In this document: positions 47,859 through 59,808 of the stretch, piece after piece
How the letters are laid out: each line of letters starts with the position of its first letter
Numbering within the stretch: position 1 is the stretch's first letter
Assembly (NCBI GenBank): GCA_965216325.1
Contig: OZ244160.1
Coordinates: 2,176,001 to 2,240,000, forward strand
Origin: Coraliomargarita sp.
GTDB lineage: Bacteria; Verrucomicrobiota; Verrucomicrobiia; Opitutales; Coraliomargaritaceae
Length of the DNA stretch: 64,000 bases
Direction: 5' to 3'
Made by a program: the position numbers and the translations under genes
The notes under the pieces: model-generated
Seen by the model: only the letters and a program-made list of their open reading frames with translations
Told to the model about the DNA's origin: nothing
Databases searched by the model: none

Positions 47859-48209
<351 letters not shown>

Positions 48210-48248: not shown

Positions 48249-48282
48249 GCGGTCATCCCTTCGGGGGTGGCCGCTTCTTTTT
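48249..48282 (+). terminator. Intrinsic terminator after amtB-PII
   Basis: GCGGTCATCCC-TTCG-GGGGTGGCCGC followed by TTCTTTTT. Confidence 0.8.
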
Positions 48283-48447
48283 GCAGGCCATCTTGCTCCT
48301 ACTCAAAATGGCGGAGGGGATTACGATTAAGAGTAGGATTATGATTAAGATGTGAGTGCAGGCGCATCTGCGCTACACCTTGAATTGTTTACCTGAATTT
48401 TTTTCAAAAAGGTGGAACTCTTCTTGGGGAGTGCTGACTACCATAGC

Positions 48448-48548
48448 ATCAACCGTGGGTTGAATCATTTTTTCATATGAGTTAGTTAGGGTAACTAAGG
48501 TTAGCAGTGAGCCTCGTCTTCAATAGGAGTCGGGGCTCTTTGTTTTTT
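48448..48548 (+). ncRNA. Candidate sRNA copy 1 (ECF-sigma promoter)
   Basis: GGAACT-N16-GACTA promoter, 5' hairpin TCAACC/GGTTGA, terminator GAGCCTCG..CGGGGCTC-TTTGTTTTTT. Confidence 0.65.
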
Positions 48549-48663
48549 GTGAGCTCGCTTGATGGTTGGCGGTCAATGCATAGCGCTTGTGGGCTGGATG
48601 TATGTCCTTCGAGTTTGTGTAGAATTTTTGGAACTCTTTTGCTGGGGCGCTGACTACCGTCGT

Positions 48664-48764
48664 ATCAACCGTGGGTTGAATCATTTTTTCATATGAGTTA
48701 GTTAGGGTAACTAAGGTTAGCAGTGAGCCCCGTCTTCAATAGGAGTCGGGGCTCTTTGTTTTTT
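48664..48764 (+). ncRNA. Candidate sRNA copy 2 (ECF-sigma promoter)
   Basis: Same architecture as copy 1; spacer diverged while -35/-10 and transcribed part are conserved. Confidence 0.65.
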
Positions 48765-48827
48765 ATGAGCTCGCTTGATGGTTGGCGGTCAATGCATAGC
48801 GCTTGTGGGCTGGATGTTGGGCTTCTA

Positions 48828-48908
48828 TGTGAATAAACGCGCTCCTCGATTTGAGAAACGCGTTATTGGGGTGGACCGGGGGATAGCCGATCCGAGGACT
48901 AAGAAGTT
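48828..48908 (-). ncRNA. Candidate sRNA 3 (ECF-sigma promoter, convergent)
   Basis: GGAACC-N16-GTCTA at 48942-48916, C-rich middle, terminal hairpin AACGCGTTTCTC/GAGGAGCGCGTT-TATT. Confidence 0.5.
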
Positions 48909-49210
48909 GCTAATGTAGACCATTAGCTGAGGCTAAGGTTCCATATTCGAATACGAAAATGCCCTCGAGGGGCGGGGCGATTAAGGGGCTTGAAGCTGTA
49001 TTAAAGCTATATGTTTGGTGTCATTAGGTTGGCGGGCAGGTTCCTGTCGATCTGTGGACTGCCGATGCCTGAGTTGAGTTTAATGTCGACGGGGCTGAGT
49101 TCGATGTGTGGCTCATTGGCCGCCAGTTCGGATGTCTCTATTGGCTCGTCGACGACTGCTTCTGGGCTAAAGGAAAATTCAATTACCACGGGTGCTTTGG
49201 AGAGTGTGCT

Positions 49211-49879
49211 CTATAGGCGCTTGAGGTATTTTTTATCGTTCTTGTCGATGAAGAGCACGCGCTTGTCTTGGATGATATAAACTTTAAGTCCAAGGCTGTA
49301 GTTGACGGTGTCACCCACGCTGTAGGCGTCGTCGTTGAGCAGGACTTTACTTTCGGTGCCTGAGAGGCGCACGCCGGAGATGCTGACCTTGCTGAGCCAG
49401 TCGATGATTTTTGGGTCGGGCTGGGCGGCGGCTTTGCGTGCAGCTTCCTCTTCGGCTGCTTTCTTGGCGGCGGCTGCGGCGAGTTCGGCTTCTCGTTGGC
49501 GTGCCGCTTCTGCCTCTGCCGCTTCACGTGCGCGCTGGAGTTCAGCGAGCACCTTGGGCGATTCTGCGGGGGTGAGTGGTGCGCTGATGGTTGCTGCGGG
49601 TTCTGCGGGTGCGCTCTCTTGTGGCTTGGCTTGCGCGGTGTTGATTGCTGGTGCCGGTTCGGCAATGGGCTCTTCCTTGAGTAGCATGACCGCAAGGACG
49701 GCGATCAGTCCGAGCATGACGGCGAAAGCCGCGACGAGTCCAAGTGTCAGTCCCATGTTCGGGCCTCGCTTAGGGCTGGGCGGTGTTGAAATGGTGTTGC
49801 TGCCGGAAAGCGATGGTGATGAGGGCGCACTGCTGCGGTCGCGTTGGGCCTTTTTGAGGGCTTGGTTGATCAGGCTCAT
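49211..49879 (-). CDS. GspB/ExeB-like protein
   Basis: [15 protein letters not shown]-terminus, TM, C-terminal VLLND..Y.VGD; downstream of exeA. Confidence 0.75.
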
Positions 49880-49998: not shown

Positions 49999-50823
<825 letters not shown>

Positions 50824-57377: not shown

Positions 57378-57431
57378 TGATCATTTTTTTGGTAGCTAAA
57401 AAACAAACAAAACAAAATAACAACACATACT

Positions 57432-58526
57432 ATGAAAAACAAAATCGCACTCGCATCCGCTTTCGTAGCGGCTTCCGGTCTCGCGACAGCGGAAATCGTC
57501 ATCAACGATTTCCTCTCTTTCGAAGGCTTCATCGATATGTCCTACAGCCACACTGACGTTGACAGTGACAACGTTGCTGTTGCTTCCGGTTCTGATAACA
57601 GCTTCGACATCGATCAGGTTGAAATCGACTGGTTGTTCGATTTCGACACAGTAACTGCTCAAATCGACCTCGCATACGAAGGTTCCGATGGTGATCAGGA
57701 AACTGCTGTTGAGCAGGCATTCGCTACTTACCACTTCGACAACGGTGGTGCGATCACAGCTGGTCGTTTCGCTTCCATGCTTGGTTTTGAAGCATTCGAG
57801 CCAACTGGTCTTTACCAGTTCTCCTTCGCTTACGACTACAGCATCCTTCCTGGTTATGCTCAAGGTGTGAAGTTCACCCACGAAAGCGACAACACTTTCT
57901 TCGGTATCTCCCTTCTTGATAGCTACACTGAGCGTTCCGACGATGATCCTTACAATGGTCGTCTTGGTGGCTCTGATGATTCCGACTGGGCTGTTGAAAT
58001 TGCGGGTGCCTACTACATGGACAATGGTCTGTCCTTCTTCCTGGGTGGTTACTATGAAGATACTGAAGGTCCATCTGTTGACGGTTCTGTTTACGCGATC
58101 AATGGTTATGTAACTTACGAAACAGGTGCATGGATTTTCGCAGCTGAGCTCAACTACGGTGACTCTGAAGTTGGCGCATACGGTCTTTCTGCTGAAGAAG
58201 GCACTCTGTATGATGGGTTCTCCATCTTCAGTGACGACGAAGAAGCGCTCTCTGGTTTGCTCATGGCTAACTACGCTTACAGCGACCAAGGCTCCATCAC
58301 TGCTCGTTTCAGCTATGAAGAACGCACTCTTGACGACACTGCTTTCGGTGACGCAGACGCAGAGCAATACAAGCTGACGCTTGCACACGGCTGGGCATTC
58401 ACAGACAACCTCTCCCTCGTAACTGAAATCAGCTATGTTGATGGTGAAGTTGACCTTGACGGTGGTCTTGAGGACGAAGACTTCGATAGCCTTACTGGTG
58501 CAATCGAAGTTATCTTCGCATTCTAA
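57432..58526 (+). CDS. Outer-membrane beta-barrel porin, paralog 1
   Basis: Signal peptide, amphipathic strands, VEQAF, AGRF.S.LGFE, C-terminal Phe. Confidence 0.8.
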   Translation: MKNKIALASAFVAASGLATAEIVINDFLSFEGFIDMSYSHTDVDSDNVAVASGSDNSFDIDQVEIDWLFDFDTVTAQIDLAYEGSDGDQETAVEQAFATYHFDNGGAITAGRFASMLGFEAFEPTGLYQFSFAYDYSILPGYAQGVKFTHESDNTFFGISLLDSYTERSDDDPYNGRLGGSDDSDWAVEIAGAYYMDNGLSFFLGGYYEDTEGPSVDGSVYAINGYVTYETGAWIFAAELNYGDSEVGAYGLSAEEGTLYDGFSIFSDDEEALSGLLMANYAYSDQGSITARFSYEERTLDDTAFGDADAEQYKLTLAHGWAFTDNLSLVTEISYVDGEVDLDGGLEDEDFDSLTGAIEVIFAF

Positions 58527-58716: not shown

Positions 58717-59808
58717 ATGAAAAACAAAATCGCACTAGCATCCGCTTTTGTAGCGGCTTCCGGCCTCGCGACTGCGGAAATCGTAATCAACGATTTCCTC
58801 TCTTTCGAAGGCTTCATCGATATGTCTTACAGCCACACTGATGTAGATTCTGATATCAGCATCCTTGACGGTTCTGACAACAGCTTCGACATCGACCAGG
58901 TTGAAATCGACTGGTTGTTCGACTTCGACACAGTAACTGCACAGATCGACCTTGCATACGAAGGTTCTGATGGTGACCAAGAAACTGCTGTTGAGCAGGC
59001 ATTCGCAACTTACCACTTCGACAATGGTGGCGCGATCACAGCTGGTCGTTTCGCTTCCATGCTCGGTTTTGAAGCTTTCGAGCCAACTGGTCTCTACCAG
59101 TTCTCCTTTGCTTACGACATGAGCATCCTTCCAGGCTATGCACAAGGTGTGAAGTTCACTCACGAGTCTGACAACACATTCTTCGGTCTCTCTCTTCTCG
59201 ACAGCTATGTTGAGCGTGATCTGGACGATCCTTACAATGGTCGTCTTGGTGGTTCTGATGACTCCAGCTATGCATTTGAAATTGCTGGTGCATACTACAT
59301 GGACAATGGCCTTGGCTTCTTCCTTGGCGGTTACTACGAAGACATCGATGGTGACGGAGTAACTTCTGCTGATGGTGACAACTATGCAATCAATGCATAC
59401 GTGACCTTCGAAACTGGTGCTTGGATCTTCGCAGCTGAGCTTAACTACGGTGAAACCGAAGCAAACGCTTATGGTGTCGACTACGGTGTTGATCCTGTCT
59501 TCGGTAACTTGGAAATCGTTGGCACTGACGACGAGGCTGTGTCTGGTCTTCTTATGGCTAACTACGCATATAGCGACAAGGGATCTATCACAGGTCGTAT
59601 CAGCTATGAGTCCTTCGATTATGACAATGCGTTCGACGACGAAATCGAGCAAATCAAGTTCACTATCGCGCACGGCTACGCGTTCACAGACAACCTCTCT
59701 TTGGTAACTGAAATCAGCTACTCTGAGGCAACTGTTGAGAACAACCTCGGCCTTGACGAAGACATCGACACCCTTCTCGGTGCTGTTGAGCTTATCTTCG
59801 CATTCTAA
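58717..59808 (+). CDS. Outer-membrane beta-barrel porin, paralog 2
   Basis: N-terminal half nearly identical to paralog 1; C-terminal IFAF. Confidence 0.8.
   Translation: MKNKIALASAFVAASGLATAEIVINDFLSFEGFIDMSYSHTDVDSDISILDGSDNSFDIDQVEIDWLFDFDTVTAQIDLAYEGSDGDQETAVEQAFATYHFDNGGAITAGRFASMLGFEAFEPTGLYQFSFAYDMSILPGYAQGVKFTHESDNTFFGLSLLDSYVERDLDDPYNGRLGGSDDSSYAFEIAGAYYMDNGLGFFLGGYYEDIDGDGVTSADGDNYAINAYVTFETGAWIFAAELNYGETEANAYGVDYGVDPVFGNLEIVGTDDEAVSGLLMANYAYSDKGSITGRISYESFDYDNAFDDEIEQIKFTIAHGYAFTDNLSLVTEISYSEATVENNLGLDEDIDTLLGAVELIFAF

Follow-up and report, generated by a model that had tools for sequence, protein, structure and literature searches.

A family of putative small RNA genes with ECF-type promoters in Coraliomargaritaceae and its tandem duplication downstream of amtB-glnK in a Coraliomargarita genome

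The intergenic region downstream of amtB-glnK in Coraliomargarita sp. (GCA_965216325.1) contains a tandem pair of predicted small RNA (sRNA) genes, and comparison with related genomes indicates that this pair is a local, recent event within a family-wide element, a circumstance missed in an earlier note on the same DNA. The DNA analysed (the window) comprises 64,000 nt of contig OZ244160.1 (2,176,001-2,240,000). Judged from sequence comparison, the genes represent a real, hitherto undescribed multicopy family of sRNA genes with ECF-type promoters, and we are highly confident of the family, the promoter, the terminator and the stand-alone position, all of which emerge from the comparison. In the overall reading proposed here, to which we give an even chance, the RNA is an ECF-driven trans-acting regulator repressing mRNAs of exported proteins that start with Met-Lys codons. 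The two paralogous genes would each yield a trans-acting sRNA of ~100 nt, transcribed by a conserved, autoregulated ECF sigma factor (gene at 2063954), probably when the envelope or protein folding in the periplasm is under stress. An exposed U-tract-CAU and a G/U-rich stretch, which together form the putative reverse complement of a start region lacking a Shine-Dalgarno (SD) sequence (A/C-rich leader, AUG, AAA), would most likely pair over Met-Lys start codons and lower the translation of mRNAs that appear enriched for exported proteins. In an RpoE-like response, the sRNA would serve as the repressive, non-coding arm, with the seed logic of FopS and GibS; a single RRM protein may replace Hfq, and the tandem pair would double the dosage.

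Both copies lie between glnK (47871-48209) and a convergent gene (49211-49879). The upstream genes amtB-glnK were identified by Pfam, and an intrinsic terminator (48249-48274, plus strand) separates their operon from the sRNA genes. The earlier note had described two copies with a 216-bp period in an ORF-free gap whose promoter boxes are conserved amid diverged sequence, and these observations hold. The duplication is real, with 189-nt copies at 48413-48601 and 48629-48817 that are 94% identical at a spacing of 216, and no ORF with a coding signal is present, a minus-strand ORF of 54 codons being dropped by the gene model. The copies differ at 9 of 23 positions in the promoter spacer (6/16) and the 7 nt following the -10 box (3/7), versus none in the -35 (0/6) and -10 (0/5) boxes. 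Only 2 of the 154 nt after the promoter differ, both within the predicted RNA (48448-48550, 2/103), and the stem change at 48514/48730 keeps pairing as had been stated (U-G versus C-G). The 51 nt beyond the terminator (48551-48601 and 48767-48817, where the duplicated unit ends) are the same in both copies (0/51), so that a recent duplication, or gene conversion, accounts for the near-identity and not selection on the RNA alone; the intact promoter boxes beside a drifting spacer are a better sign that both promoters are being kept. This post-terminator DNA is not shared by the two congeners compared (G001 and G002). One contig of DNA run X4 spans the junction between the copies, with a depth of 87 on the shared part versus 48-56, support that is not independent because X4 is possibly the source sample. 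RNA runs X1-X3 are mixed-community contigs with the amtB/glnK genes of other organisms; they do not cover 48392-49800 and speak neither for nor against expression. Congener G002 has a single copy after amtB-glnK, and thus the tandem is peculiar to the host genome among the genomes examined; in genus g16 the element adjoins an orthologue of the DivIC gene of the window (50901), suggesting that the site may be old. Directly downstream of the pair, the minus strand carries genes for an ExeA-like ATPase (49999-50823) and its partner (49211-49879); the ATPase is close to an XrtA/PEP-CTERM-associated family (293 bits versus a cut-off of 324), and the partner has no Pfam match.

The predicted sRNAs of copies 1 (48448-48548; ~100 nt; 81 bits with covariance model R1) and 2 (48664-48764; 84 bits) are encoded on the plus strand, with the +1 of both placed from promoter spacing only. 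Each begins with a 5' hairpin (48449-48463 and 48665-48679; 6 bp and -5.8 kcal/mol in copy 1) directly before a U-tract. There follow U6-CAU, a candidate start-codon seed complementary to AUG-AAA-AAA (48468-48476 and 48684-48692; predicted unpaired 0.79 in copy 1), a family-conserved G/U-rich core with GUUAG repeats and AGGUUAG at its end (48479-48504 and 48695-48720), and an intrinsic terminator hairpin with a U-tail (48509-48548 and 48725-48764), recognized by fold and covariation. Fold z-scores are -4.5 and -5.1 for the two copies, mostly driven by the terminator, and none of 200 shuffles was as stable. In the family, the terminator shows two-sided changes at 9 of 11 pairs with 97% paired (0/500 shuffles; slid controls, 46-60%). 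The conserved part of 38 aligned copies is the core, GAGUUAGUUAGGGU..AGGUUAG, which has no consensus pairing in the family alignment and of which only about half is unpaired when sequences are folded singly. For the 5' hairpin, covariation is not supported, the hairpins of window-type and type-B copies being out of register.

BLAST identified relatives in 12 of 61 genomes, and a covariance model built from 17 copies without the promoter found copies in 64 of the 85 genomes of the host family, representing 14 of 18 genera. GGAAC is present upstream of 38 of 39 copies, and the remaining copy is mis-anchored and has GGAAC when read otherwise; the counting script preferred GGAAC anchors, the covariance model itself being promoter-free. 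The expected conservation of promoter plus core in relatives was thus found, and the RNA still matches no named family, as Rfam scans gave nothing at cut-off. Outside the host family, model R1 gave only weak, mostly terminator-driven matches among 151 genomes of the order (9 genomes, E 3e-4 to 8e-3), model R2 gave none in 136 genomes of other families, and a pattern applied to 401 genomes of the phylum stayed near the reversed control, so the family is not convincingly present there. No description of the family was found in Rfam or the openly accessible literature, and searches of that literature brought up no characterized sRNA of this lineage; the accessible portions of bioRxiv 10.1101/2023.12.22.572801 and of the review PMC13750123 make no mention of Verrucomicrobia.

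The copies were classified into subtypes. Most type A copies have xseA on one side and a DUF3568 lipoprotein region on the other, and the third copy of the host genome (G000:C1:2256712-2256796) lies upstream of the same genes as this type A site. Among 20 weaker matches fetched, 12 are type B, 2 others have GGAAC and 6 are promoterless (mostly after a gene end). Type B, found in three copies in G198, combines a GGAACT-N16-GACTA-like promoter, a 5' hairpin and U-tract-CAUAUG; the window copies agree with it in promoter, hairpin position and seed and with type A in the 3' half. U4-6-CAUA is present in all 16 window-type and type-B copies (two clades) and is predicted to be unpaired at 0.53-0.99. 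In the 38-copy, mostly type-A alignment, TTTCAT occurs in 11 copies and TTTCAG in 13, and the anti-AUG seed is therefore not family-wide.

That each copy is a stand-alone sRNA gene, as originally proposed, receives comparative support from its own promoter, its covarying terminator, the insulation provided by the glnK terminator and the convergent downstream gene. That the element is a leader or attenuator acting in cis, or just a duplicated spacer without function, is very improbable: at the ancestral site the element does stand upstream of same-strand genes in most genera, the 5' hairpin and U-tract score as a weak terminator, and the identity beyond the terminator reflects recent duplication, but the gene opposite the window copies is convergent, as it is at two other loci, copies have moved among at least four neighbourhoods taking promoter and terminator along, and the boxes are intact while the spacer drifts. 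A match to a known repeat or mobile-element end had been named as a possible refutation. There are three strong copies per genome, which does not fit a dispersed repeat, the duplicated unit has no inverted repeat, and none of 13 pattern matches in viral contigs has GGAAC upstream; these results speak against an origin of this kind.

The promoter of copy 1 (48414-48440, plus strand) consists of a -35 box, GGAACT (48414-48419), and a -10 box, (T)GACTA (48436-48440); that of copy 2 (48630-48656, plus strand) has intact boxes and a diverged spacer and ranks 6th among 4706 GGAAC sites. The family promoter is GGAAC-N16-(T/G)G(T/A)C. Eight sigma-70 matches over cut-off were identified in the host genome, six of them ECF-sized. 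One of the ECF genes (G000:C1:2063954-2064556) is preceded by GGAAC-N16-(C/T)G(A/T)TC in all 29 readable orthologues (30 fetched), 45-57 nt upstream of the gene. The ECF-type promoter of the earlier note is thus not only conserved in relatives but also found before the orthologues of an ECF gene. This ECF was found in 74 of the 85 family genomes and co-occurs with the RNA (61/74 with the ECF versus 3/11 without it; p 0.0004), an association that is overstated as six of the eight double absences come from one genus. That genus, g17, has neither the ECF (0/6) nor the RNA (0/6), and G022 is also without both. A second RpoE-like ECF shows the opposite pattern, being present in g17 and not found in g6 (0/6), where both the RNA and the 2063954 ECF are present; it was rejected as a GGAAC-autoregulated sigma factor, the motif occurring in 1 of 30 orthologues. 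These comparisons suggest that the 2063954 ECF is probably the sigma factor that reads the sRNA promoters. The gene behind it (G000:C1:2064553-2065245) has no Pfam or NCBIfam match and encodes a candidate anti-sigma factor; its atlas neighbours are unnamed, and one cluster among them has zf-HC2 on 13% of its members.

GGAAC is also found upstream of an FkpA-like PPIase gene in 15 of 30 orthologues, one match being spurious and about seven starts mis-picked, and these promoters carry a GAC-type -10 box as the window copies do. In E. coli, sigmaE recognizes the -35 sequence GGAACTT, autoregulates and includes FkpA in its core regulon, according to the available text of PMC1312014. The promoter shared by the ECF and FkpA-like genes, together with the joint absence of ECF and RNA in one lineage, indirectly supports an envelope-stress reading. 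A genome-wide promoter scan yielded 32 genes versus 13-62 for permuted boxes, i.e. no enrichment. The originally proposed link to envelope stress is backed indirectly by the FkpA-like promoter and not by the genome-wide scan; we lean towards envelope stress as the trigger. It is unlikely that the same RNA answers instead to an oxidative, heat or starvation ECF, or that a different sigma factor serves the GAC-type -10 box. All ECFs of the host genome score below the curated cut-offs of named families (138 versus 236 bits for RpoE in the case of the 2063954 sigma). Candidate promoter sites also precede a YceI gene (Pfam) and, judged by sequence features, suf and ftsH-like genes. The -10 box is GAC in window and type-B copies and GATC or GTTC at most ECF autoregulatory sites. 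Against such a trigger, the FkpA-like promoters have the same GAC box, and the g6 copies have TGACTC, yet the second RpoE-like ECF is not found in g6. Elsewhere in the host genome, an 18-nt near-palindrome upstream of G000:C1:658790 is kept in G007 and is a likely transcription-factor operator.

An envelope-stress sRNA of this kind would most likely be wired like MicA, RybB and FoxI. With the enterobacterial MicA, RybB and MicL and with FoxI of Fusobacterium (described with the sigmaE-dependent sRNAs of E. coli in the accessible text of PMC9546586), the RNA shares an ECF/RpoE-type promoter, a short stand-alone form, several siblings per regulon and the repression of envelope proteins, the last being proposed here. 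The class trait of a conserved ECF promoter common to the RNA and the autoregulated ECF gene is present. Differences from these sRNAs are that Rfam scans gave no sequence match, that no Hfq match was found here, that the seed is an anti-start-codon sequence in an SD-poor host and that the targets are candidates only.

Target prediction used a self-trained gene model (2491 genes), with gene starts and signal peptides assigned by simple in-house scripts. Leaders in the host genome are G-poor and carry no SD signal, and SD scarcity is reported in Verrucomicrobia, mainly Verrucomicrobiales, in the accessible parts of PMC10783764 and PMC10798248. ATGAAAA is more frequent than any other start and also has the largest share of signal-peptide genes, a signal peptide being predicted in 54 of 101 versus 16% genome-wide. 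The reverse complement of the RNA is start-like, lying at the 99.6th percentile of random ATG contexts and the 88th of real starts. Twelve of the 20 genes with at least 10 in-register Watson-Crick pairs are signal-peptide genes, an enrichment that is automatic for any U-tract-CAU. Strong-helix start regions did not exceed those of shuffled sRNAs (237 versus 213 +/- 40), the top 100 duplex matches contained 18 signal-peptide genes versus 16 expected and 0 OMP-like genes, and the shift towards signal-peptide genes is small (-0.45 kcal/mol versus 0.09 +/- 0.26 in 40 shuffles). An accessibility-aware ranking, made without a shuffled control, placed 20 signal-peptide genes in the top 100, OMP-like genes at a median rank of 884 of 2456 (non-signal-peptide genes, 1273) and two neighbouring porin genes only at about rank 650 of 2456. 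A conserved-target test with 1166 orthologue pairs between G000 and G007, the latter having type A only (no U-CAU) and few accessory surface genes, gave 5 shared top targets, no more than by chance (5.0 +/- 2.1). Weighing these results, start-codon pairing and repression may be true or not with about equal probability. Two BBP2 porin genes in tandem in the window (57432-58526 and 58717-59808) have identical N-termini and very A/C-rich leaders; their starts can form 9 in-register pairs with the seed and are mid-rank in energy models.

The G/U core might instead pair with a narrow set of targets, the main one in the genus being the leader of coxB (caa3 oxidase subunit II, Pfam; G000:C1:1184004), which would link the response to respiration; we consider this improbable. 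The coxB site (-20 to -7) can form 14 contiguous pairs with the invariant core and is the best of 2456 start regions, and its duplex energy is in the top percentile in all three g1 genomes. However, the percentiles scatter from 11 to 99 across 13 genomes outside the genus, the three congeners are not independent, and one extreme match among 2456 is expected sometimes by chance.

The core resembles both FopS and the antisense of start codons, a likeness overlooked in the earlier note. FopS sRNAs are paralogous sRNAs of Bacteroidaceae (RF04319) that repress SusC-like mRNAs near the start codon, and the RRM protein RbpB binds FopS, GibS and BTnc231 (PMC11697453, available text); of the latter two, GibS pairs with its targets across the start codon, and BTnc231 has been validated by Northern blot (PMC7366714, available text). 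The window RNA and FopS are both multicopy and have a single-stranded 5' part followed by a terminator (in the window RNA by fold and covariation), U-tract-CAU followed by UUAG and AAGGUU appears to be common to them, with 28 of 37 positions aligning, and both occur in SD-poor lineages with no Hfq match and a small RRM protein. In the host genome, no match to Hfq or ProQ and one RRM protein gene were found. In contrast to FopS, which has a housekeeping sigma-ABfr promoter and 12-15 copies, the window RNA has a GGAAC ECF-type promoter, 1-4 copies, a 5' hairpin and ~30 extra nt; it belongs to another phylum, and its targets and RRM binding are candidates only. With GibS and BTnc231 it shares a long unstructured 5' seed, and with BTnc231, the best Rfam match of the first scan, also U-tract-CAUA, UUAG and AAGGUUAG in the same order, although it is shorter, has an ECF promoter and scores 15.3 bits versus a threshold of 80.4 for BTnc231 (RF04180).

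The RF04319 model scored 14.7 bits end to end on copy 2 versus a gathering threshold of 56, reached at best 22.8 bits in the host genome and exceeded the cut-off nowhere in 41 family genomes. At E<=5, it matches just two places in the host genome, the third copy and one promoterless sibling that follows a PEP-CTERM gene; in the 41 genomes, 4 of 30 weak matches are at family loci and 3 at PEP-CTERM 3' elements. A search of the host genome with a profile HMM of 24 FopS cores recovered no copy of the family. The B. thetaiotaomicron FopS core, compared with the whole host genome, ranked the two window copies first by one point. For window-type and type-B copies, 0-6 of 1000 shuffles were as good under four scoring schemes (p about 0.001-0.006, uncorrected for the 4227 families scanned), and 35-75 of 1000 without the 5' tract. 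Model R1 gave seven weak matches in three Bacteroidales genomes, two of which are FopS at E about 1.5. The remainder include GUUAG-repeat stretches of a non-FopS kind (L195, L196 and L197 in G235-G237), two of them before clear terminators. In an all-genome pattern scan, the matches listed (80 of 126 loci) were all of FopS sequence type, which is not independent support because the pattern was designed to include FopS. On score and promoter, the RNA is not a FopS member; its way of reading mRNAs would most likely be FopS/GibS-like. Within the FopS profile, 15 nt match the antisense strand at the start of a porin gene of the window (57427-57441). Both phyla thus offer like start regions, and convergence accounts for the likeness as well as common descent does.

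RNAs such as CsrB act by titrating an RNA-binding protein. A similar role for the window RNA is conceivable but fairly unlikely: its GUUAG words would act as a decoy, as in CsrB or FopS-RbpB, and the protein bound would most simply be the single RRM protein of the genome. Family-wide, it is the GUUAG-repeat core that is conserved most and not the anti-AUG tract, the target tests are null, RbpB binds all three Bacteroides sRNAs named above (PMC11697453, available text), and sense-strand GUUAG clusters lie behind some genes, e.g. an outer-membrane-like gene whose cluster is kept in G001. On the other side, GTTAG is no more frequent than expected ahead of 301 terminators (7 versus 7.0), for which reason enrichment in 3' ends was rejected, G007 does not retain the motif of the rpsD-rpoA spacer, the words are contiguous and not shown in hairpin loops, and pairing accounts better for the invariant U-tract-CAU found in the window subtype. 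The GUUAG-rich stretches before terminators are at G000:C1:2020522-2020604 (L024, behind the outer-membrane-like gene), 2694558-2694646 (L023, behind an Hsp20-like pair) and 865447-865531 (L022, behind another ORF), of which L024 and L022 are kept in G001; the core-like motif of the rpsD-rpoA spacer (G000:C1:2595202-2595230) is on the sense strand.

If the reading as an ECF-driven repressor of Met-Lys starts is true, the 'ECF sigma plus repressive sRNA' design would extend, without Hfq, to a further phylum, the group would gain a defined ECF promoter together with its sigma factor, and target choice by sRNAs without SD sequences would become testable, with an AUG-AAA-A seed picking exported proteins through the codons of their signal peptides. 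From the resemblance to FopS arises a clean question of convergence versus transfer. More speculatively, and on the doubtful side of even, Bacteroidota and Verrucomicrobiota, both without SD initiation, may use the same anti-start-codon riboregulator, evolved independently or shared by transfer, which would read AUG-AAA-A with an A/C-rich leader and address exported proteins via their signal-peptide Lys codons; in the present lineage it would be wired as the ECF-dependent, Hfq-free repressive arm of the envelope response, and the 3' ends of PEP-CTERM surface-protein genes would harbour siblings lacking a promoter.

Such promoterless siblings, consisting of U-tract-CAUA, AGGGUUA, AGGGUAA and a terminator, were identified at five loci: G000:C1:466512-466580 (L445), L441 and L464 in G206, L482 in G215 and L475 in G209. 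They lie directly behind PEP-CTERM genes in four of the five, L475 having little upstream sequence. A run of 12 nt in the 5' part is complementary to the start of the PEP-CTERM gene that follows (467195), and the sibling is possibly a 3'-end-derived sRNA. At gene ends genome-wide, the sequence immediately upstream of terminator hairpins is strongly enriched in the words TTTCA, TTCAA and TCAAA (z 9-12; 301 gene ends). Intergenic regions of G000, e.g. at 611719, 851562, 2721543 and 2864502, contain a short dispersed repeat made up of AGTTAGAA units, in many cases where neighbouring genes lie close together.
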